Virus record (IMG/VR): IMGVR_UViG_3300032254_000001
Span: 256,001-320,000 of that record
From: a virus
Lineage: Duplodnaviria > Caudoviricetes
DNA: 64,000 bases
Direction: 5' to 3' (one strand)
Shown here: positions 9 through 54,874 of the stretch, piece by piece
Position numbering within the stretch: position 1 is the first letter of the stretch
Layout of the letters: each line of letters opens with the position of its first letter
The notes under the pieces: generated by a model
Told to the model about the DNA's origin: nothing
What the model saw: only the letters and a program-made list of their open reading frames with translations
Databases searched by the model: none
Position numbers and translations under genes: made by a program

Positions 9-404
9 TCAGATGTTAGTTCTTTCAAGTAGGTCTTCCTCTATTCTTTTCTGCTTATTCTCTTTACTAATATGATGAAGAAAGGCTGAGTGACTAACTT
101 GCACTAAAAATCCAAATGGGTTATTGCTTTTAGTTGAGTCAAAATGCTGATATGAAATTAACATTTGCATAACCGCAGCTTGAACTAAATCATCTGCGTA
201 CACTAGACTCTGATAATGTTTTCTGTGTAGTAGTCTATCCGCAAGTTCTATCATGTACTTGCCTAATGCTTGCGATACTTTGCCATCATTTTGTGCATAG
301 TCTATAGCAATAAGCAAATCAGAATTGTTGTTGATTGGACCGTAATAGCCCCACGGGTCAACTAACTTATCCCATACTGCACGTTGGTCTTTATTCAACA
401 GCAT
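9..404 (-). CDS. Truncated paralog of the gp55-like late sigma factor with an N-terminal AVWDKL tag
   Basis: DGKVSQALGKYMIELADR...KSNNPFGF...ISKENKQKRIEEDLLE aligns by eye with HGRTTNNLAMMYIKLCER...KSQNPFAY...LNIEKKMQNIRDDILE of the full gp55 at 28984-29961. Confidence 0.7.
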   Translation of the reverse strand: MLLNKDQRAVWDKLVDPWGYYGPINNNSDLLIAIDYAQNDGKVSQALGKYMIELADRLLHRKHYQSLVYADDLVQAAVMQMLISYQHFDSTKSNNPFGFLVQVSHSAFLHHISKENKQKRIEEDLLERTNI

Positions 405-684
405 TGAGTTTGTCCCATATAGCTTCTTTCTCTAAGCGATCATGGAACTCAATCATTGCTGCTTTTCTTTCTTTCTTAAAAAGATCAAGTGCTATCTTGT
501 GTGGGCAGTCCTCAGGGTACTCAGTTATGTTGTGTTCAGCTTCGCTTAAGCGACAAGAAACCCAAGTGTTGTCTGACTCGTAGTCCCTGCTGTGATCGCT
601 TATGTGTAATGTTTCATCCCACTCGTAGTAATTTTTACATTCAAGTATATCTCTGCACATACTGTCATAATGTATTCTAAACAT
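391..684 (-). CDS. Cys-containing hypothetical protein with C-terminal AIWDKL tag
   Basis: ATG at 684 preceded by GAGGA; shares NI..YPE.C.H and W.KL with 1765-2031. Confidence 0.7.
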   Translation of the reverse strand: MFRIHYDSMCRDILECKNYYEWDETLHISDHSRDYESDNTWVSCRLSEAEHNITEYPEDCPHKIALDLFKKERKAAMIEFHDRLEKEAIWDKLNAVE

Positions 685-937
685 CTTTCCTCTGCTCTGC
701 TGCAATTTCACTAATTAATATATCAGCTAGTTCTTGTTCAACATCTATTCCGTGTAGGGACTCTAGGTCTTTAGCAACGTCAACAGTCCAACTAGCACGT
801 AGCCTACGGGTCACAGGGCCAGTCTCCTTTAGGCGGTCCCAAACTTTTTCTTTCTCTCGTTGAATAGCTTCTTTCTGCTTCCGGATACCGTTGCGGATCT
901 TTCGTTGGTTCACTTGTATTGCTGTCTCTTTCATCAA
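677..937 (-). CDS. WxKL-tag mini-protein carrying a gp23 major capsid fragment
   Basis: KVWDRL followed by TRRLRASWT...HGIDVEQELADILISEIAAE; 21/39 identical to the MCP segment at about 8920-9040. Confidence 0.8.
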   Translation of the reverse strand: MMKETAIQVNQRKIRNGIRKQKEAIQREKEKVWDRLKETGPVTRRLRASWTVDVAKDLESLHGIDVEQELADILISEIAAEQRKDV

Positions 938-1166
938 ACTTCCATTCTCCTAGTATATGTTTATTAAATTCTGTCATATCTTTAGTCAGACTGTCAATGT
1001 ATGCGTCTACTAAAGACCAATCGATCCCATACTTCTGGGGGAGTTGTGTTACCCCAGATAATTTCTTCCATATGGTCTCTTCTTCTTTTTGCAGCCGCTC
1101 TCTTTCTTTTCGCCTCTGCTCTTTTCTTTTTCCGCGGGTCCTGAAACGTTTCCGTCTTGAAGTCAA
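804..1166 (-). CDS. Arg/Lys-rich WxKL-tag hypothetical protein
   Basis: TTG start with AGGAGG upstream; N-terminus MTSRRKRFRTRGKRK is paralogous to 994-1419; TIWKKL. Confidence 0.65.
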   Translation of the reverse strand: MTSRRKRFRTRGKRKEQRRKERERLQKEEETIWKKLSGVTQLPQKYGIDWSLVDAYIDSLTKDMTEFNKHILGEWKFDERDSNTSEPTKDPQRYPEAERSYSTRERKSLGPPKGDWPCDP

Positions 1167-1419
1167 AATGAAACCCTCCTACTGGTTCTATACCTGCTGT
1201 TTGTTCGCCCATTGGCTGTACACCAACTAAGTCGTCTGCAATCATTACAGGTGCTATGCGTCTCATTAACGGCATTAAAATAGCGCCAAGATCATCCCAA
1301 TCGTATTCAGGTGGTAGTGGCGGGCTAACATTTGTTAACTTGTTCCAAGTCTCTAACGACTCTTTCCTTAGTGCTTTACGCTTACCACGCTGCCTACGTC
1401 TGCGCCTGACACTAGTCAT
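994..1419 (-). CDS. WxKL-tag mini-protein carrying a gp23 fragment (Gol-peptide-equivalent region)
   Basis: ETWNKL followed by ILMPLMRRIAPVMIADDLVGVQPM; 13/24 identical to the MCP segment at about 9288-9360. Confidence 0.75.
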   Translation of the reverse strand: MTSVRRRRRQRGKRKALRKESLETWNKLTNVSPPLPPEYDWDDLGAILMPLMRRIAPVMIADDLVGVQPMGEQTAGIEPVGGFHFDFKTETFQDPRKKKRAEAKRKRAAAKRRRDHMEEIIWGNTTPPEVWDRLVFSRRIH

Positions 1420-1765
1420 CGTCGGTAATATCCTTAGGTTTAGGTTTCATTATTATAACATTATCATGCTCGTCGGACTTCTCGTATTTGTTCTTAATAC
1501 TATCTAACTTTTCTTCAAATGTGTCGCAGGCCCACTCGTTTAATTGATTGTATAAGTCAGCAGCACCAGGCGTCACAGTGTGTCTAAATGTTTCTGTTTT
1601 TGAATCATAATTGCTGATTATACGTTCTATTCGTATTACCCGCTTCCTGCGCCACCAAGACTTGAAATGAATAGTAAAAACATCATAAACCTTTGTGCCA
1701 ATCTTATGCTCCATTGTGTGCTCGAAGTATTCGATTTTATCAAAAAATTCTTTAGGTAGTATCAT
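1412..1765 (-). CDS. Hypothetical protein
   Basis: ORF tightly packed between its neighbours on the same strand. Confidence 0.65.
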   Translation of the reverse strand: MILPKEFFDKIEYFEHTMEHKIGTKVYDVFTIHFKSWWRRKRVIRIERIISNYDSKTETFRHTVTPGAADLYNQLNEWACDTFEEKLDSIKNKYEKSDEHDNVIIMKPKPKDITDDD

Positions 1766-2031
1766 TATAGGACCTGTATATGTACTGGATCACGTAAAAG
1801 TGATTTTACTGTTCTATGGGGTTGATTCAATTTCTTCCACATTATATCTTGTTGCTTTGCTTTATCTTTCGCAATGGTAATATCTTCAAGGTGCAAACAA
1901 CCTTCTGGATATTTAATAATGTTAATCGTCACACCCATTACAATACAGGAATGACATTTACCAACCTGCATATCAAACTCTCTGTGGTACTTGCATTCCT
2001 TTGATTTACAAAATTCATTAAAGTTATACAT
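1765..2031 (-). CDS. Cys-rich hypothetical protein with IMWKKL tag
   Basis: CxxxxC, CxxC and YPEGCLH; paralog of 391-684. Confidence 0.7.
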   Translation of the reverse strand: MYNFNEFCKSKECKYHREFDMQVGKCHSCIVMGVTINIIKYPEGCLHLEDITIAKDKAKQQDIMWKKLNQPHRTVKSLLRDPVHIQVL

Positions 2032-3055
2032 GCTCTACAACTACTTTTACATTTGGAAACGGTGTTATAAACTGCCCACATGCAGACTGAATTTCAACTC
2101 CGGTTGAAATTTGTATCTTTAAATTATTGTGAAACTTTGCAAACTGCACAATAATTTCCTTAAAGCGATCGCTTTCTTCCATTTCGTTAGCATCACATCT
2201 GTTATAGCGTAGTACTCTGAACTCGTAGTCTTCTAGATTCCACTTAGTGATAAAATCAAACAATGCTTGCACTTCTTCTTCGCTATCGTTAACACCATCC
2301 ATAAACATATGATGGAATATTAAATTATGTTTGTTGTTGTCTGCGTACTTTAACAGCTTCGGCATTGCTTCTTCCAATGGCATAGCTCCAGGAATAATTT
2401 GATCCCTAGTCTCTTGTACTGCACTGTGCAACGAATAAAACAATCTAAATGGACTGCGCTGTATGTAATTGCCCATTGATGATTGTGCTTCACTATGCAC
2501 AACAACCTTGTTATTTGGATTAGTTCCAAATGATTTTAGGTCTTCATTGAGCTCGTGAAATATGTCAATCCAATCATCGTTTCTAATTTTAGGTAGCACT
2601 GTTGAAAGATCAACACCATCTAAGCCTGCTGCGTAGTTGTTATCTGTTACGTAGTTTAACACATCGTTGGTTGCTCTGTACACCCCTGCTGGGTTAAGAA
2701 TTGCTTCGCCCATGCCCATCCAGCATACTTTCATGTATCTGCTTGCTATGCTTGCATCGTGTTGCACTGCATGATCAATTGCATCAATAAGATTTGATTG
2801 CACTGTAGTAATTGGCAGCTTCTTGTAAGGCATTTCTTTCATTGTTAAGTAACAGAAGTCACACTGCATCGGGCATCCGCCGCTAATCGATGCGAACACT
2901 GAATACTTATTTCTGTTAATAGGATTCATTTCCAGTACACCAGTTACTGGATTTCTAATTGTGTCGCAGCTTGAAACAGTTTTTATTGCAGTTTCAGACG
3001 TGTCGCTATGCACATACTTTGTTACTAGTCCGTCATCTGATTCAAAAACTTCCAT
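2024..3055 (-). CDS. RlmN/Cfr-family radical SAM protein
   Basis: SISGGCPMQCDFC cluster motif, MGMGE, SLHS and C-terminal SACGQ, all RlmN/Cfr hallmarks. Confidence 0.85.
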   Translation of the reverse strand: MEVFESDDGLVTKYVHSDTSETAIKTVSSCDTIRNPVTGVLEMNPINRNKYSVFASISGGCPMQCDFCYLTMKEMPYKKLPITTVQSNLIDAIDHAVQHDASIASRYMKVCWMGMGEAILNPAGVYRATNDVLNYVTDNNYAAGLDGVDLSTVLPKIRNDDWIDIFHELNEDLKSFGTNPNNKVVVHSEAQSSMGNYIQRSPFRLFYSLHSAVQETRDQIIPGAMPLEEAMPKLLKYADNNKHNLIFHHMFMDGVNDSEEEVQALFDFITKWNLEDYEFRVLRYNRCDANEMEESDRFKEIIVQFAKFHNNLKIQISTGVEIQSACGQFITPFPNVKVVVEHV

Positions 3056-3290
3056 TGGTATTCCTCTTCAATGAGTCCGGGTGAATTATTTCGTTACGAA
3101 CTCTGTTGTTTTCTCTTTCCCTTGCTGCTTCCATCTCTGCTAGTATCTCGTCTTGGATGCGACGAACTGCTTCTTCCATACGTCCTACCATGTGTCGTAG
3201 CATCTCTTCCCATTCCGTGTCATGGATAGAAGGTTCTTCCTGCAGACCGTTCTTTAAGCGATCCCAGACTTCTTCTTGCTCTGTGTTCAT
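3042..3290 (-). CDS. WxKL-tag helical hypothetical protein
   Basis: EQEEVWDRL at the N-terminus; overlaps its neighbours. Confidence 0.7.
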   Translation of the reverse strand: MNTEQEEVWDRLKNGLQEEPSIHDTEWEEMLRHMVGRMEEAVRRIQDEILAEMEAARERENNRVRNEIIHPDSLKRNTNGSF

Positions 3291-3472
3291 GCCGTTGTGT
3301 CCGATACTATTGTTATAGCCTTGTCAGCTCGAAGCACCTGTGTTGACCAATATATCGATCGATACATAAGTGGTTCAAATTTAACCTTAGGCTCTGGAAC
3401 ATGCTTAAGCTTTTCCCACACCAGTTCTTTATCACTGGGTTCTGCAGATGTTACTTTCTTGACTTTTGCCAC
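3287..3472 (-). CDS. WxKL-tag hypothetical protein
   Basis: DKELVWEKLKHVPEPK, nearly identical to the tag in 4112-4567. Confidence 0.7.
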   Translation of the reverse strand: MAKVKKVTSAEPSDKELVWEKLKHVPEPKVKFEPLMYRSIYWSTQVLRADKAITIVSDTTA

Positions 3473-3671
3473 TAAATTTTAATGCGAAAATTATCGCATC
3501 CTCCTTATACTCAAACCACCAACGTGTGTTAGTGTAATGGTGATAAAAACATCCACCATCTTGTTGTTCGACACACCACTTGTGAGCTTCTTTAATACAG
3601 TCACGACATGGTGGTGGAACAACAAACCATAATTCATTACGATGTTCCTTAGGTGGATTACACCACTTCAC
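3432..3671 (-). CDS. Small protein of the WC...[FW]xFExExDAxxFxL family
   Basis: WCVEQQDGG...WWFEYKEDAIIFALKF. Confidence 0.7.
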   Translation of the reverse strand: MKWCNPPKEHRNELWFVVPPPCRDCIKEAHKWCVEQQDGGCFYHHYTNTRWWFEYKEDAIIFALKFSGKSQESNICRTQ

Positions 3672-3919
3672 TCATCTTTACCTACTACCACATACTCGAC
3701 GCTAGATACGCCGTCACCTAAATCTTTGTGTACTAATTTAGTTTCCACCTTACCTCCTCGCATATCAGCGAACAGTTGCGATGCTTTTTTAAGTTCTTCT
3801 TCTGTGTTCTCTACTTCTTTCCAATTCGAAGCCTTGCTCAGCTTTTCCCACATTAATTCCTTATCGTCATCTTCTGTAGTCTTGCCAAGAAGTATTCTTT
3901 TAAAACGTTCTAAGTTCAT
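3668..3919 (-). CDS. WxKL-tag hypothetical protein
   Basis: DKELMWEKL; ATGA overlaps with neighbours. Confidence 0.7.
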   Translation of the reverse strand: MNLERFKRILLGKTTEDDDKELMWEKLSKASNWKEVENTEEELKKASQLFADMRGGKVETKLVHKDLGDGVSSVEYVVVGKDE

Positions 3920-4143
3920 TTGTCGATTGTACTCTCAATATCGAAATACATTGTTTTACCAGCTCCGCGTCGTGCTGCTATTACAACCAATTCACCTTTG
4001 CCAACACCACCACACAATGCTCTACCTAATTGCTGTTGGTACCATGTTAGGCCGTTGCCATTAAATGGTGGTACATACTCTGTGGATAACTTTTCCCACA
4101 TTAGTTCCTGCTCAGCGGCTTTTGAGGATTTTGATTGTGACAT
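3916..4143 (-). CDS. WxKL-tag mini-protein carrying an isolated Walker A (DnaB-like) fragment
   Basis: EQELMWEKL followed by GGVGKGELVVIAARRGAGKT, in only 75 aa. Confidence 0.7.
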   Translation of the reverse strand: MSQSKSSKAAEQELMWEKLSTEYVPPFNGNGLTWYQQQLGRALCGGVGKGELVVIAARRGAGKTMYFDIESTIDK

Positions 4144-4567
4144 TATTTGGATCCACCTCTTCTTTAGAAATACTTAGTATAGTGTCCATCATGCTCGGAT
4201 ATAATGAACTAATGTCATTATCAAACGTGCTACCCTTAGGCTGTGGAACATGTTTAAGCTTTTCCCAAACTTCTGCCTTTTCCTCTTCGATCTTCTGTAA
4301 TAAAATTTTAGCTTTAACACGGGTACCAAACACAGGACTTTTTGCAGCTTCCTGCAAGTCTGCTATCTCCATGCGGATCCGGTTGTCATGCTCCTCATCA
4401 GTATCAGTAATCATCCTAAGTCTAGCTTTTGCTCGTAGCCTAATGCCCATTGAATCATCCTTACTAAGGATTTTAAGATATTCCGGGCCATTGTTCATTA
4501 GCTCTATCTTCTCAGCTTCAGACATTGCCATTATTCTAATTTGGTCAAACAGATCAACTTCACTCAT
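4112..4567 (-). CDS. WxKL-tag protein carrying a family-B DNA polymerase motif A-like fragment
   Basis: EKAEVWEKLKHVPQPK followed by DISSLYPSMM. Confidence 0.65.
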   Translation of the reverse strand: MSEVDLFDQIRIMAMSEAEKIELMNNGPEYLKILSKDDSMGIRLRAKARLRMITDTDEEHDNRIRMEIADLQEAAKSPVFGTRVKAKILLQKIEEEKAEVWEKLKHVPQPKGSTFDNDISSLYPSMMDTILSISKEEVDPNNVTIKILKSR

Positions 4568-4797
4568 TTAAATTTTAATGCAAACAATGTTGCATCCTCT
4601 TCGTTTTCAAAATACCAATATGTTTCTCTAAATTCCACGTCCGCTTTATTTTCTTTATACCTGCGATAATATTGCCCTGATGAATTATGTCCTGTGCACC
4701 ATGATCCTTCCGCAGTATACGATCTAGATGCATGTCTAACTAATGTCACTTTATTCCACGGGTGGCCGTTAACATCGCCTATATCTTTATATTCCAC
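4564..4797 (-). CDS. Small protein of the FxFExExDAxxFxL family
   Basis: WCTG...YWYFENEEDATLFALKF. Confidence 0.7.
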   Translation of the reverse strand: MEYKDIGDVNGHPWNKVTLVRHASRSYTAEGSWCTGHNSSGQYYRRYKENKADVEFRETYWYFENEEDATLFALKFK

Positions 4798-5540: not shown

Positions 5541-5569
5541 ATTATAGCAAGTTTTGGAGGGATGGTCAA
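5541..5569 (-). promoter_or_regulatory. sigma70-type early promoter
   Basis: TTGACC-17 nt-TATAAT with extended TG. Confidence 0.8.
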
Positions 5570-5808
5570 TCAGTTTTGGTGTCATCGAGTGTAATGTTAA
5601 CGCTTAAATAGGGGAATTCGGTGTCATCTACGTACTCAACATCGTACGGCTTTTCAATTGTGCAATCGGTACTTAAAAAGGCATCTACTGCCGTCTGTTC
5701 CTCTATGGATAATACCTCATCCTGGAAAAGCCATATATCCATAACCGATTCGAATCCACCGTGCTTAATAAGAAGCAGTGTCATTAGGTGTTCCTGTTCT
5801 GGAGTCAT
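5566..5808 (-). CDS. LILK[YH]G-family small protein
   Basis: LLLIKHGG...DIWL. Confidence 0.65.
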   Translation of the reverse strand: MTPEQEHLMTLLLIKHGGFESVMDIWLFQDEVLSIEEQTAVDAFLSTDCTIEKPYDVEYVDDTEFPYLSVNITLDDTKTD

Positions 5809-5855
5809 AAGTCAGACCTTTATGGGCTTCTGTGTTTGACGCTTTACAAGCCGTT

Positions 5856-5884
5856 ATGTTAACACACTATTTTGGTGTTGTCAA
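5856..5884 (-). promoter_or_regulatory. sigma70-type promoter
   Basis: TTGACA-17 nt-TAACAT with extended TG. Confidence 0.65.
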
Positions 5885-6033
5885 TGGCTGTTCTTTATAT
5901 GCACGTCAAAACCTTCTTTTTCATGCTCGTAATATACAGGAGTATTGTTCAAAATCTTTGCTATTGAATGTGCAAACTCTCTGTCTTCTGTCATTAGTCG
6001 TACGAATGTTGCTTTAAGCTCTTCGTCACTCAT
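5881..6033 (-). CDS. 50-aa hypothetical protein (not in ORF track)
   Basis: MSDEELKATFVRLMTEDREF...KNSH*; fills the gap between two same-strand genes and overlaps the upstream stop. Confidence 0.55.
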   Translation of the reverse strand: MSDEELKATFVRLMTEDREFAHSIAKILNNTPVYYEHEKEGFDVHIKNSH

Positions 6034-6247
6034 CTTCATTATCTGTATCCTTTGGATTATCGTATAGTTTGTTAAACTCTTTCTTTACATCTAAAACAAG
6101 ATTTGGTAATATTTTTATTGCATGTTCACCTAGTACTTCCTTCTGGGCATCACTGAACTGTTCTTTATCGTACAACCATATACAGAATGCGTTCTCTATA
6201 CTGCCGTACTTCAAAATTAAAAATGTTTTAACATCATCTTCACTCAT
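6026..6247 (-). CDS. LILKYG-family small protein
   Basis: FLILKYGSIENAFCIWL. Confidence 0.7.
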   Translation of the reverse strand: MSEDDVKTFLILKYGSIENAFCIWLYDKEQFSDAQKEVLGEHAIKILPNLVLDVKKEFNKLYDNPKDTDNEDE

Positions 6248-6447
6248 TTGCGTCTGGTCTCTGCAAAGAATATATTAATAGCATCGTGCAAGTGAGCGGG
6301 CATTTTATCGTGTGTATTGATCCACATATGGAATGCTTTGTCCAAATTGCCGTATTTTAATATTAAATATGATTCTATATTATCCATAGTTATCGGTCCC
6401 GGGTGATACGCTGTTCGCGTTACTAGCGTAACACACTCGTCTACCAA
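6244..6447 (-). CDS. LILKYG-family small protein
   Basis: YLILKYGNLDKAFHMW. Confidence 0.7.
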   Translation of the reverse strand: MVDECVTLVTRTAYHPGPITMDNIESYLILKYGNLDKAFHMWINTHDKMPAHLHDAINIFFAETRRK

Positions 6448-6885: not shown

Positions 6886-6914
6886 AGTATAACAATTTAA
6901 AATGCGTTTGTCAA
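6886..6914 (-). promoter_or_regulatory. sigma70-type early promoter (leftward)
   Basis: TTGACA-17 nt-TATACT with extended TG. Confidence 0.85.
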
Positions 6915-7053: not shown

Positions 7054-7284
7054 ATGAATGTAGTACCCGGAGCATCTATAACAGCTATTAAAGATTCGTA
7101 CTTTATGGTTGAAGCACGTACTCCTTTTGAGCGTGATGGCGAATTATATCCATGGTGTAAGAATCACGATAGCGAAGGATATTTCAATTATGCTAATCGC
7201 TACTCTAGTGGCGGTAACGTCCGACCACAGTTTTGGTTTGAGTTAGAAGCTGATGCTATGTTGTTTAAGTTGAAATTCGCATGA
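7054..7284 (+). CDS. Small protein of the FxFExExDAxxFxL family
   Basis: WCKNHDSEGYF...FWFELEADAMLFKLKF. Confidence 0.75.
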   Translation: MNVVPGASITAIKDSYFMVEARTPFERDGELYPWCKNHDSEGYFNYANRYSSGGNVRPQFWFELEADAMLFKLKFA

Positions 7285-8192: not shown

Positions 8193-8280
8193 TAGTTCTG
8201 TCCAAGCAAGCGAGGTCAGTCGAACACGTTCGAGTCACCCGCAACAACAGAACCTACTTATCATGGATTACAACTCAAAA

Positions 8281-8306
8281 AAAAGCACTCTGTAAAGAGT
8301 GCTTTT
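8281..8306. terminator. Bidirectional intrinsic terminator
   Basis: AAAAGCACTCT-GTAA-AGAGTGCTTTT with A/T tails on both sides, between convergent units. Confidence 0.85.
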
Positions 8307-8346
8307 TAATTTTACTTCAAACTATCTAAGATAGTACAGTAACAAC

Positions 8347-11312: not shown

Positions 11313-12080
11313 TTAAGAACCGCTTAAGCTTTTCTTGTTAACACCAGCATCTTCACCCTTCTTCTTAGGTTCAGCTACTTTGCTTTCGTTTGGTTTTGTT
11401 GTACCGTCGCCTGGCTTAACTGCTGGGGTAGCATCGCCTTTAGCTTCTGTACCTGTTGGTGTGATAGGTTTAGCAACTGCGCCTTTCTTACCGCTGTTGT
11501 CAGCGTTAACAGACTTCTTGTTTACTGTGCCTTCTTCTGTTGAGTTTGAAATGCCTTTAGAAACTTTAGATAAGCTTACTGCTTCATTGAAGCGGCCTTC
11601 CATTTCTTCTTCAGCGCCCATTTCTGGTTCCATACCCATTTCTGGTTCCATACCCATTTCAGGCTCCATGCCCATTTCATCGCCAGCTTCGTCGCCCATA
11701 ACAGCATCAAATTCTGACATTAAAGCGTCTAACTGATCTTCAAGATCAACAACGCGATCTTCTAAATCGGCTTCTTCTTCGCCTTCCATGCCGCCCATGT
11801 CATCGCCCATTTCTGGTTCCATGCCCATGTCATCGCCCATTTCTGGCTCGGCACCCATTTCTGGTTCCATGCCCATGTCGTCTTCGCGCATGCCTTCTTC
11901 ATCTGAAGAGATATCGTTAATAAGTTCGTCAGCTGCATCGCCACCTAACTCATTTTCTCTATCCATTAATGATTCATAGATATCGCGAGACTTTTCAACT
12001 ACGATTTCATGAAAAAGTTCTTCGGCTTTGCCGTCTTCTTCATTGATAACGTATTCAATAAGTTGTTCAAATTTATTCAT
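11313..12080 (-). CDS. Acidic low-complexity prohead core/internal protein
   Basis: Position in the head module; MG[MA]EPE repeats. Confidence 0.6.
   Translation of the reverse strand: MNKFEQLIEYVINEEDGKAEELFHEIVVEKSRDIYESLMDRENELGGDAADELINDISSDEEGMREDDMGMEPEMGAEPEMGDDMGMEPEMGDDMGGMEGEEEADLEDRVVDLEDQLDALMSEFDAVMGDEAGDEMGMEPEMGMEPEMGMEPEMGAEEEMEGRFNEAVSLSKVSKGISNSTEEGTVNKKSVNADNSGKKGAVAKPITPTGTEAKGDATPAVKPGDGTTKPNESKVAEPKKKGEDAGVNKKSLSGS
11613..11880 (-). repeat. Coding tandem repeats (MG[MA]EPE)n in two blocks
   Basis: Repeated cccatttctggttccat-like units at about 11613-11680 and 11785-11880. Confidence 0.85.
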
Positions 12081-28983: not shown

Positions 28984-29961
28984 TTATGAATCGTCAGTTT
29001 TCTTTTTGTTGGGGTTACACAAGTTATAATCGTATGCAAAGTCTTCTTTCTTGCCTTCGTTTGCAAACTGTCTAGTCCAACTAGGTGTTAGTCCGTTAGC
29101 TTCGAGAATATCATCACGTATATTTTGCATCTTCTTCTCAATGTTTAGTACACGAGTAAAGCTGTTAGTCACTGCGGCAGTGTAGTACGCAAATGGGTTC
29201 TGTGATTTAAGTTCATTAAACTGTAGCCCAATCTGTGATAGCTGCAATAACGCTTGTCCTTGCATCTCATCGTTATACGTATACCCACGCCAGTTACTAC
29301 GTGTGCCATAACGTTCGCATAGCTTTATGTACATCATAGCTAAGTTATTTGTAGTTCTGCCATGATCTTTGGTAAACTTGCCTTCTTCGATATCGCCCTT
29401 CCAGTGTGATTTACCTACTATTTCTGCAGATAGCTCACCATCTGTGTCTGTTACACGGTAATGGAAGAATGGAGGGAAGTTAACACGCATTGGTATCATT
29501 TCAACATCTGGATCAGTTGGTGATAATGATTGATCATCGTCAGTTTCGATTAGTTCGTCAAATACTGCGTTTGCTTTTGCTTGTTTCGCTGCTTTAGCTA
29601 ATGCCGCTTTTGATTTCTTCTTAGGCACTAGCGGAATGTGCTCATTGGTCATAACACGGAATACAACATCATGCAGTTCAACGTCTGCTACATCTGTCGG
29701 TATTTCTAACTTAGTGAGTCGTGTTGCTCGTGCTTGTCTAGCTAAATCAACGACGGGTACGTCTTTGAATGTAGGGTTACCGTTTTCGTCTTTGCCGACA
29801 TCAACGTTCTGTGTTCCCCAAATTTCTTCTAGTGATTCTACTATGAAGTCTTGCTGATTGTCCTCAACTTTATCTTTAAAGGAACAATATGATATTTTGC
29901 TTAGGTGTATTTCTTTAAGCATATCCTTATTATTTAAGTAATTCTTTTTTCTCTTAGCCAT
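28984..29961 (-). CDS. gp55: Late transcription sigma factor (gp55-like)
   Basis: N-terminal KNYLNNKDMLKEI; NWRGYTYNDEM and NPFAYYT; ATG 29961 with GAGGA upstream. Confidence 0.9.
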   Translation of the reverse strand: MAKRKKNYLNNKDMLKEIHLSKISYCSFKDKVEDNQQDFIVESLEEIWGTQNVDVGKDENGNPTFKDVPVVDLARQARATRLTKLEIPTDVADVELHDVVFRVMTNEHIPLVPKKKSKAALAKAAKQAKANAVFDELIETDDDQSLSPTDPDVEMIPMRVNFPPFFHYRVTDTDGELSAEIVGKSHWKGDIEEGKFTKDHGRTTNNLAMMYIKLCERYGTRSNWRGYTYNDEMQGQALLQLSQIGLQFNELKSQNPFAYYTAAVTNSFTRVLNIEKKMQNIRDDILEANGLTPSWTRQFANEGKKEDFAYDYNLCNPNKKKTDDS

Positions 29962-53413: not shown

Positions 53414-54874
53414 ATGGCGTATACCATAAATCTTACAAACGGTTCTATCTTTGCAACAGTTTCAGATGGAACAATCAATACCGACAGTAGCGTTACTGTT
53501 ATTGGTAAAAACTACGCTGGTTATGGCGAATTCTTAGGTGAAAACTTTTTAAGAATGCTTGAAAACAGCGCAAACCCAACAGCACCAGCTAACCCTCTTA
53601 GAGGCCAGTTATGGTACGATTCAAGCGCGAGCTTGCTTAAGGTTTATAACGGTTCATCATTTAAGGACTTAGGCTCAACTACTTCACAATCATCAGCACC
53701 AGCATCAAACGTAGTTGGCGACATGTGGTTTGACACATTAAATTCACAATTAAATATTTGGGACGGAACTCAATTTATTTTAGTTGGTGGTAGTGCAGGT
53801 GTTGGTATTGGTGCTTCGGGTTCAATCGTTGACACTATTACAGACAGCATTGCAGTAGACCACGTTGTAGTTAAGATGTTCGTTGATGACGATCTTGTAG
53901 CTATAATGAGTAAAGATGCAGCGTTTACACCAGCAACACCAATTACAGGATTTGCTTCAACAATTTCCCCTGGCATGCAATTGGCTTTAACAATAGCAGG
54001 ACAGGTTCCACTCTTTGTGGGCGACGCCACTAATGCTCAAACACTTGACGGCATTGATAGCACTGGATTTTTAAGTGCTGTCGGAGACGACAATACAAGT
54101 GGACAGATAGGCATTATCAACGATAACGGATTAACGGTTGGTGCAGACGGGGATGCAAAACTTAAGGTTGTTGCAGACGATGTAATACTTGGTAACATTA
54201 CACTTAACGGTGATGTAGTTCTTCAAGTTAATGACGGTGGTGTAACAACTTCAGTTATTACTTGTGATGGAGCTAGCGGTCGTGCTAGAGTTGCTGCACC
54301 ACTTGCATCAACTGATGTAGCTAATAAAGATTATGTTGATACTTCAGCAGTTAGACTAGACGGTAGCAACGATATCACTGGTGTAATAAATCCAGCAACA
54401 GATGGTCTTATTGATTTAGGTGAAGCTCTTAAACAGTTTGCTACTATACATGCTGTTACATTTAGCGGACAAGCTACTACAGCTCAGTACGCAGATTTGG
54501 CAGAACGCTTCCACGCAGATACAGCAATGGCGCCTGGTACAGTAGTACAGTTAGGCGGTATAGCAGAAATAACAAAAGCGGACAACGATTTATCTGATGA
54601 TGTCTTCGGTGTTATAAGTACTAATGCTGCATTTTTAATGAATGCAGATGCAGGCCAAGACGAAACTCATCCTCCAGTAGCGATGAGTGGTAGGGTGCCA
54701 GTTAGGGTAATTGGTAAGATTGTTAAAGGCGAACGTTTAGTTTCTGCAGGTAACGGTCTTGCTAGAGCGGCGTTACTATCCGAAATGACTTCATTTAATG
54801 TGATTGGTAGAGCTTTAGAAAACAAAACAACAGATGGTGAAGGCGTAATTGAAGCGTTCGTTACTGTCAACTAA
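53414..54874 (+). CDS. Tail fibre-like protein with C-terminal intramolecular-chaperone/autocleavage-type domain
   Basis: GKNYAGYGE N-terminus; AQYADLAERF...PGTVV...SGRVPVRV C-terminus. Confidence 0.75.
   Translation: MAYTINLTNGSIFATVSDGTINTDSSVTVIGKNYAGYGEFLGENFLRMLENSANPTAPANPLRGQLWYDSSASLLKVYNGSSFKDLGSTTSQSSAPASNVVGDMWFDTLNSQLNIWDGTQFILVGGSAGVGIGASGSIVDTITDSIAVDHVVVKMFVDDDLVAIMSKDAAFTPATPITGFASTISPGMQLALTIAGQVPLFVGDATNAQTLDGIDSTGFLSAVGDDNTSGQIGIINDNGLTVGADGDAKLKVVADDVILGNITLNGDVVLQVNDGGVTTSVITCDGASGRARVAAPLASTDVANKDYVDTSAVRLDGSNDITGVINPATDGLIDLGEALKQFATIHAVTFSGQATTAQYADLAERFHADTAMAPGTVVQLGGIAEITKADNDLSDDVFGVISTNAAFLMNADAGQDETHPPVAMSGRVPVRVIGKIVKGERLVSAGNGLARAALLSEMTSFNVIGRALENKTTDGEGVIEAFVTVN

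Follow-up and report, generated by a model that had tools for sequence, protein, structure and literature searches.

Why would a phage that already encodes a full-length gp55 keep a second, miniature gp55-type gene, and why would that gene begin with a short peptide that recurs in the small proteins encoded beside it? The gp55 protein is the textbook minimal sigma factor, and its coupling to the sliding clamp is the model for replication-dependent late transcription. The locus lies at one end of the window analysed here, a stretch of 64,000 nucleotides that corresponds to bases 256,001-320,000 of a 344,483-bp record with direct terminal repeats. This record derives from an uncultured, T4-like jumbo phage found in two microbial-mat metagenome studies. 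A first-pass annotation had described the gene as a second, miniature gp55-type sigma factor carrying the tag of the adjoining gene array, and both parts of that description are borne out by gp55 profiles and by a PSSM of the tag.

A second gp55 reduced to the region-2 domain

The features that concern the two gp55-like genes are as follows.

9..404, minus strand: mini gp55-type sigma gene P0001, 131 aa (ATG-start ORF; PHROG 234, Pfam Sigma70_r2, AlphaFold2 and Foldseek)
15..335, minus strand: sigma region-2 homology domain, helices H1-H4, residues 24-130, without H5 or tail (DSSP and T4 gp55 alignment)
351..401, minus strand: N-terminal address module, residues 2-18, with a helix at 5-14 carrying V10-W11-D-K-L14, then D-P-W (W11 and L14 in 22/22 family members; PSSM)
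28984..29961, minus strand: resident long gp55 P0002, 325 aa, the presumed true late sigma (PHROG 12791, E=6e-76)

The membership of P0001 in the gp55 family and its fold are secure. The profile search that the first-pass annotation had called for gave strong matches, to the long gp55 family PHROG 12791 (E=1.9e-10) and, over profile positions 35-125 of 181, to PHROG 234 'late sigma transcription factor' at E=1.1e-16, and Pfam Sigma70_r2 (PF04542) scored 28.9 bits over residues 61-116, above its gathering cut-off of 24. T4 gp55 in the PDB was reached at E=0.0024 from the single sequence and at 4.4e-14 from the family profile, which also matched SigA and SigH at E=3e-4 to 2e-3. An AlphaFold2 model built from 22 homologues has a mean pLDDT of 90 and five helices by DSSP (5-14, 27-40, 45-59, 70-87 and 96-130), the second to fifth of which correspond to H1-H4 when aligned with T4 gp55. 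Its top PDB match by Foldseek is T4 gp55 in the open complex (7d7c_F; TM 0.73, rmsd 1.7 Å), and cellular sigma factors come next.

P0001 and P0002 are the only two gp55-like genes in the whole genome, and they align as annotated: BLASTP places residues 36-127 of P0001 on 196-287 of P0002 (92 residues, 25% identity, E=2e-11), NPFAY has become NPFGF, and the NWRGYTY region has diverged to HYQSLVY. The further claim that only the C-terminal core aligns is imprecise: H1 is kept as well as H2-H4. Residues 24-34 (INNNSDLLIAI) resemble helix 1 of the long gp55 (YLNNKDMLKEI) and of T4 gp55 (YVNNKELLQAI), and the same NN..LL..I motif stands at the start of the resident long gp55 and of most gp55 homologues; P0001 thus follows canonical gp55 without a break from H1 to H4. 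By this alignment it is the uninterrupted canonical core, and the insert, some 175 aa placed between H1 and H2, belongs to the long protein P0002. Similarly, the tag AVWDKL does sit at the N-terminus (residues 9-14), as had been noted, but because H1 is kept it is an addition of about 20 residues before H1 and not a replacement of the N-terminus. The part that is missing is C-terminal: P0001 ends at residue 131, directly after H4, so that H5 and the sliding-clamp-binding motif are absent.

The long gp55 shares about 38% identity with the protein annotated as late sigma in jumbo phages of the RaK2 type, and continues after H4 with PSWTRQ and a DFAYDY-type tail that resembles a clamp-binding motif. 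The PS[WY]TRQ segment is conserved throughout the long-gp55 clade, and in array-less relatives the long gp55 ends in SSLDE-type tails instead of DFAYDY-type ones.

A maintained and fast-evolving family

Searches for relatives of P0001 differed greatly in reach. A word-index homologue search returned P0001 alone when P0001 was the query and five proteins when a family alignment was used; a scan of viral contigs with back-translated P0001 found no relatives; and tblastn of P0001 on a cultured-phage collection found gp55-type genes at one place per record, at less than 60% identity. An exhaustive HMMER search yielded 859 relatives at E < 0.001, and from these the mini-sigma family was drawn. At least 22 cluster representatives, all intact ORFs of 124-145 aa, match P0001 end to end at 27-43% identity. 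All 22 terminate 5-12 residues past H4, none has H5 or the tail, and all share an N-terminal module with the consensus L-S-K-E-Q-R-x-V-W-x-x-L-K-x-P-Y, in which W11 and L14 are invariant. All but one of the 22 group together (SH-aLRT about 90) when 152 gp55-like proteins are placed in a maximum-likelihood tree, and this group of 21 is separate from both the T4 clade and the long-gp55 clade to which P0002 belongs. Short gp55-like proteins of 100-123 aa that carry no tag also occur in metagenomes.

Decay of the gene had been proposed as the outcome that would overturn the annotation, with dN/dS near 1 as its sign. Among five members with available DNA, Nei-Gojobori estimates gave pN of 0.38-0.49 and pS of 0.69-0.91, with dN/dS of 0.16-0.31 for pairs involving P0001 and below 0.27 for the remaining pairs; dS is saturated, so these ratios are upper bounds. 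Contigs from two microbial-mat runs are identical to the window and thus offer no variants usable for dN/dS, and identical proteins at other loci are encoded by identical DNA. Judged by these substitution patterns, the gene is selectively maintained, constrained yet fast-evolving.

These data also bear on the idea that P0001 is a decaying or recent, non-functional duplicate of the resident gp55. The gene is shorter than the resident one and sits in a region of small ORFs, as such a remnant might. Its 25% identity to P0002, separate clade, 22 intact homologues of the same length, low dN/dS and confident fold, together with synteny conserved in four other phage loci, make this origin highly improbable, and recent duplication or a pseudogene of the resident gp55 was excluded by the divergence, the separate clade and dN/dS.

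An address helix shared with an array of mini-proteins

The mini-sigma gene is one of a block of small genes that share its orientation and separate the head operon from the fibre genes. The members of the block that concern us here are the following.

391..711, minus strand: Cys-rich gene upstream of P0001 with tag IWDKL at its C-terminus, 13 nt before the sigma ATG; 14-nt overlap, translationally coupled (homologues with a C-terminal tag in L091, L097, L100 and G003)
677-937, minus strand: tagged gp23 spine-helix piece (Pfam Gp23)
804-1166, minus strand: tagged 120-aa ORF (array clustering over seven loci)
994-1419, minus strand: tagged gp23 Gol-region piece (Pfam Gp23)
1412-1765, minus strand: untagged conserved 117-aa ORF (clustering over seven loci)
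1765-2031, minus strand: Cys-rich tagged ORF (clustering over seven loci)
3042..4567, minus strand: upstream part of the array, with five further tag-bearing ORFs (tag motif)
4564-4797 and 3432-3671, minus strand; 7054-7284, plus strand; 5566-6447, minus strand: untagged paralogue-family ORFs (sequence recurrence)

Across the array the tag follows the pattern L-x-K-E-Q-x-x-[VMI]-W-[DE]-[KR]-L-[KS], then a Pro/Gly-rich turn, and residues 2-18 of P0001 fit it. Fourteen copies of [VIMT]-W-[DEKN]-[KR]-L occur on the minus strand within 4.6 kb, and their codons differ synonymously, so the motif is maintained at the protein level. A PSSM was built from 54 non-sigma tags gathered from seven related-phage loci, where the tag is N-terminal or, in the Cys-rich family, C-terminal, and is followed by the Pro/Gly-rich turn. 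With W, L and the -1 residue masked, mini-sigma N-termini averaged +7.8 compared with -22 for 165 control W..L sites, and P0001 scored 12.6, above the 99th percentile of those controls (7.5). By this measure the first helix of the mini sigma is the array's tag.

The cargo behind the tags is varied. Three tagged mini-proteins each carry a different piece of gp23, namely the Gol region, the spine-helix region and the EIDKEIL helix (the third at G000 255610-255810, minus strand), with Pfam Gp23 E values of 5e-12, 5e-6 and 0.03, the two stronger ones from the stretch 677..2031 (minus strand). The gp23 pieces in the array are 30-45 residues long. Among the other cargo, weaker matches point to a Walker-A piece of the DnaB type, a family resembling primase zinc ribbons and a DUF2793-like fibre piece.

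Several smaller observations concern the members of this block. A tagged 75-aa ORF (window 3916-4143, minus strand), which has a homologue in L100, contains a Walker-A-like GAGKT and weakly matches DnaB_C (E=0.009), and one member of the Cys-rich family with the tag at the C-terminus (391-711 and 1765-2031, minus strand) weakly matches a primase PHROG (E=0.0017). Three C-terminal tags, one at this locus and two in L091, have their Trp codon exactly 13 nt ahead of the ATG of the following gene. A further gp23 piece, the YCPYIPL C-terminal one, is found at other loci. A radical-SAM-like 343-aa gene inside the array (window 2024-3055, minus strand) scores 25 bits in Pfam, below the cut-off, and a HesB/IscA-type Fe-S assembly gene (G000 255283-255600, minus strand) closes the array here and in L089, L097 and L100. 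The remainder of the block consists of two untagged paralogue families, both of which recur at related loci; one ends in ...EEDA..FALKF and the other has FLILKYGS close to its N-terminus. The tag also appears outside the array, at the C-terminus of a 128-aa ORF (G000 20880-21266, minus strand), at the N-terminus of an 81-aa ORF (G000 53866-54111, minus strand) and within a 188-aa stand-alone DNA-polymerase piece (G000 199128-199694, minus strand; PHROG 11778, E=3e-52).

The untagged 117-aa gene is the best-conserved array member (55-66% identity in G003, L097 and L100). Relatives without the array lack it, Pfam, PHROG and the phage records gave no match to it, and, taken as a marker for the array, it was found in no cultured phage of the searched collection; it is a candidate core component of the array. 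A complex prediction for the 117-aa protein with P0001 (score 0.17, mark 0.32) speaks neither for nor against their binding.

Two readings of the tag were weighed. As a clamp-binding motif it was rejected, VWD[KR]L being unlike T4 LDFL[LYF] and the phage's own DFAYDY and NLFEF tails; NLFEF is the clamp-motif-like tail of the phage DNA polymerase, and P0001 has no such tail. A PF02916 search of the phage for gp45 gave no match, and a gp33 candidate in the phage was not confirmed. A derivation from the N-terminus of gp23 is only suggestive: the tag and gp23 (T4 KWKPLLEG) agree at W, L +3 and G +6 only, the spacing in the phage's own gp23 is 4 residues longer, and a tblastn match that runs on into a cyanophage capsid protein is weak.

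Patchy distribution of the mini sigma

At four other phage loci (L089, L091, L097 and L100) the mini sigma stands in the same setting, in the order small tagged ORFs, HesB-type Fe-S gene, SGNH-type gene and fibre genes; inside the array the gene order is shuffled between phages. In these loci and in the present genome (G000) it occurs only together with the array and gp23 pieces. All 23 related viral records examined carry the long gp55, and none of them the mini form. G004 (99% complete) and G005 lack the entire array, all gp23 pieces and the mini sigma, whereas G003 has the array and is missing the mini sigma exactly between the flanking Cys-rich gene and the fibre-piece gene. The contigs of the closest relatives, G001 and G002, stop before the expected position. 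Compared with the L091 phage, identity is 93% for gp23, 84% for gp21, 77% for gp22 and 61% for the SGNH gene, and falls to 36.5% for the mini sigma; the three other loci likewise show the mini sigma diverging far more than its neighbours, and across loci it is 34-43% identical compared with 53-93% for neighbours (61-70% for the SGNH gene). Judged by presence and divergence across these loci, the gene is accessory, cassette-like and fast-evolving.

Such a distribution makes it conceivable, if unlikely, that the mini sigma is a bait or decoy in a tagged library, a sigma domain displayed early, like the tagged capsid, helicase, primase and fibre pieces beside it, and bound not by RNA polymerase but by something such as a host defence sensor or a rival-phage factor that recognises conserved phage proteins, with the address helix as a common handle for sequestration, turnover or delivery. 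Consistent with this, its tag is the same as the 54 non-sigma tags, it occurs only where the array and gp23 pieces do and is absent from the array-less genomes, it seems to be gained or lost as a cassette between two tagged genes in G003, the array gene order is shuffled, its evolution is fast, as a conflict would lead one to expect, and its candidate promoters are of early type (see below). Against it, P0001 is a whole folded domain with conserved polymerase- and DNA-contact residues, unlike the 30-45-residue capsid pieces, and the basis for a bait is wholly one of genomic context. We know of no sensor of gp55.

Promoters and timing

Three elements around the array bear on when the mini sigma might be made.

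5541..5569, minus strand: sigma-70-type promoter candidate TTGACC-17-TATAAT with TG, upstream of the array (consensus match alone, 11/12)
6886..6914, minus strand: sigma-70-type promoter candidate TTGACA-17-TATACT with TG, where the minus-strand block of small ORFs starts (consensus match alone, 11/12)
8280..8307, no strand assigned: bidirectional terminator-like hairpin after gp23, between the late head operon and the array (12-bp stem plus T run, both strands)

The hairpin is a strong one and is followed by plus-strand genes, and no ATAAATA late box is present on the minus strand between window positions -1553 and 12457. From these candidate promoter and terminator consensus matches, we infer that the mini sigma would be expressed early. 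None of the public runs listed as containing this sequence is an RNA run.

Upstream regions across the genome contain two motif classes only, N-ATAAATA (31 regions), in which any base may stand before the late promoter core ATAAATA, and a strong early cassette, AAAGGTTGACCTTT-N17-TATAAT; a third promoter class was not found among them. The first-pass annotation had set TATAAATA against CATAAATA promoters, a distinction that dissolves here: all four N-ATAAATA forms precede genes, and T-ATAAATA and C-ATAAATA were accordingly rejected as distinct promoter classes. The same survey, with its sigma-70-type and N-ATAAATA promoters only, argues against the proposal of an alternative-specificity sigma with a dedicated new promoter class, one of three roles that the first-pass annotation had listed unranked, the others being competitor and decoy; the data do not tell a competitor from a bait. 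As separate observations, TATAAATA is under-represented genome-wide, with 13 copies compared with about 37 expected on both strands, and the early promoter cassette spans about 60 nt, consisting of an A-rich UP region, GGTTGACCTTT, a 17-nt spacer, TATAAT and a conserved TAGTACATAG start region. About 15-20 copies of the cassette occur genome-wide (e.g., G000 153677, 150270, 88756, 29760 and 14024, minus strand).

Contacts kept and lost, and a likely role at RNA polymerase

Regions 2.2-2.3 are the main core-docking segment of sigma factors. The mini-sigma consensus DDLIQEA..QML.S...FD aligns there with DLIQEGNMGLMKAVEKFD of SigA, with SigH and with H3 of gp55. In T4 gp55, E70 contacts the beta-prime clamp helices and Y97 stacks on the flipped -12 adenine, while H4 and H5 form a helix-loop-helix that holds the template strand and is followed by a linker and the LDFLY clamp-binding motif (PMC7892883), given as LDFL[LYF] in Supplementary Table 2 of that work. 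The E70 equivalent (P0001 position 72, in H3) is acidic in 22/22 mini sigmas, the D74 equivalent in 10/22 (A in P0001) and the E77 equivalent in none, so that, of the three acidic residues through which T4 gp55 contacts the clamp helices, the family conserves a single one. In the -12 base pocket, every member has an aromatic residue at both the F86 and the Y97 equivalent, and 16 of the 22 have N at the N13 equivalent; the R57 equivalent is basic in 12. The -9/-8 pocket residues vary, with F and V in P0001 at the H95 and T99 equivalents; a basic residue is found at the R114 position or adjacent to it in most members, and H4 of P0001 is full length with a basic patch. This pattern of conservation suggests that RNA polymerase docking and some single-strand DNA contact are probably kept in mini sigmas, and the residues absent from all 22 indicate that clamp coupling and H5 function are not.

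Two results on T4 gp55 frame what such a protein might do: without the helix-loop-helix it retains polymerase binding and is impaired in open-complex formation and transcription, and when truncated at the C-terminus it still supports basal transcription (PMC7892883). The first of these leads toward the reading that we favour, although we place it a little short of an even chance, in which the mini sigma is made early and, independently of the clamp, occupies or modulates the site where sigma binds the host RNA polymerase. Docking on the polymerase is, by the residue comparison, likely.

Family, fold, truncation, conservation, selection and genomic setting are established by the analysis; polymerase binding, early timing and a competitive outcome we infer, as follows. 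P0001 would be a functional gp55-type sigma of which only the region-2 domain, H1-H4, is left, preceded by an address helix of 17 residues, and would be produced early from host sigma-70-type promoters within an accessory array that shares this helix. The region-2.2-like motif on H3 would dock on the beta-prime clamp helices of the host core polymerase, at the same site as sigma-70 and the phage's own long gp55. Because it has neither H5 nor a clamp-binding tail, the mini sigma could not couple to the replication clamp, and it might act mainly as a sigma mimic, in competition with the host sigma or with gp55-type sigmas of the canonical form, not as a reader of its own promoter class. This reading draws on the docking motif being the best-conserved part of the protein, on the loss of H5 and the clamp tail, a combination that in T4 binds but initiates poorly, on the absence of a separate promoter class, and on a gene that is dispensable and evolves like a conflict gene. 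Conversely, the aromatics kept in the -12 pocket are expected of a working sigma and count against an occupant, though some of these residues may be structural. The neighbours, moreover, are pieces of proteins unrelated to transcription, and the logic of the array may not concern RNA polymerase.

The invariant aromatics invite the converse explanation, which we regard as rather improbable, that the mini sigma is a productive second sigma, a clamp-independent initiation factor that reads ATAAATA-type or related -10-like elements before or without replication, its address helix replacing the clamp tail as a tether to an activator. The DNA-pocket aromatics, the mostly kept N13 equivalent, the full-length H4 with its basic patch, the basal activity of truncated T4 gp55 (PMC7892883), the existence of tagless short gp55-like proteins and purifying selection on the gene all agree with it. 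However, H5, which T4 requires for open complexes, is absent, the -9 and -8 pocket residues vary, no separate promoter class accompanies the gene and all four N-ATAAATA variants precede genes, and the gene is dispensable in close relatives and evolves far faster than the long gp55 lineage.

A wider and more tentative reading makes the mini sigma one of several cargoes in a library of conserved phage modules (capsid pieces, a sigma domain, helicase and primase pieces and a fibre tip), all bearing the address tag, made early and directed to one common partner through the W..L helix. The sigma domain could then block the sigma site of RNA polymerase as a dominant-negative plug, or serve as bait for some factor of the host or of a rival phage by which gp55-type sigmas are recognised. 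If this were true, conflict between phages, or between phage and host, would be fought here with tagged protein modules, a hitherto undescribed strategy.

Comparison with known systems

Among known proteins, T4 gp55 (185 aa; 7D7C/7D7D; PMC7892883) is like the mini sigma in its four-helix region-2 domain, the NN..LL..I motif of H1, the acidic E70 position, the aromatic F86/Y97 pair and a long H4 with a basic patch. It differs in having H5, a linker and an LDFLY-type motif, all three of which the mini sigma lacks; the mini sigma in turn has an extra N-terminal helix with an invariant W..L, does not conserve D74/E77, and carries V for T99 and F for H95. T4 gp55 is also the sole late sigma of its phage, whereas the mini sigma is a second, accessory copy. 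The nearest annotated relatives by tblastn are cyanophage gp55 proteins (e.g., Syn9, 155 aa), which are 31-32% identical over residues 26-129, similar in size and uninterrupted through H1-H4. Syn9 gp55, however, begins at H1 without a tag, has about 30 more C-terminal residues and is the only gp55 of its genome. The long gp55 of RaK2-type jumbo phages (PHROG 12791, including P0002) belongs to the same superfamily, is encoded in the same genome and aligns through H2-H4 at 25% identity, but its H1 and H2 are set apart by the insert of about 175 aa, its H4 is followed by the conserved PSWTRQ segment and by a tail of aromatic and acidic residues, and it falls in another clade and occurs in 23/23 relatives, where the mini form is patchy. 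Sigma-70 region 2 (PF04542) and stand-alone sigma-2 fragments share with the mini sigma a recognisable region 2.2-2.3 consensus; compared with the Sigma-70 family, the mini sigma is without regions 1.1, 3 and 4, is of phage lineage and has the N-terminal tag.

T4 AsiA and the proposed sigma look-alikes Srd and Srh are small early proteins thought to bind or mimic host transcription machinery. The likeness to P0001 drawn here is one of kind; P0001 is a true gp55 homologue and not an anti-sigma fold. In the literature searched, we found no description of a second, tagged gp55 lineage without clamp tail and H5. A comparative review of jumbo phages describes minimal and RpoD-like sigmas and gp33 in this phage group and does not mention such a lineage. 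The tagged array may be a new kind of system. The mini sigma would be a natural experiment on the capacity of a bare region-2 domain on RNA polymerase, and it is also the most readily testable array member: the known binding site of a sigma domain and the assays available for it could reveal the partner of the tag and the purpose of the array.

The address helix also invites comparison with the T4 capsid targeting sequence of internal proteins, likewise a short terminal peptide shared by unrelated small proteins near head genes. The address helix differs in that it may be N- or C-terminal, has no LxE cleavage context and is associated with early-type candidate promoters. An acidic prohead-core-like protein in the window (11313-12080, minus strand) begins with MNKFEQLIEYVINEE, a start that resembles the T4 capsid targeting sequence, and thus the phage seems to have a separate signal of that type, distinct from the W..L tag.
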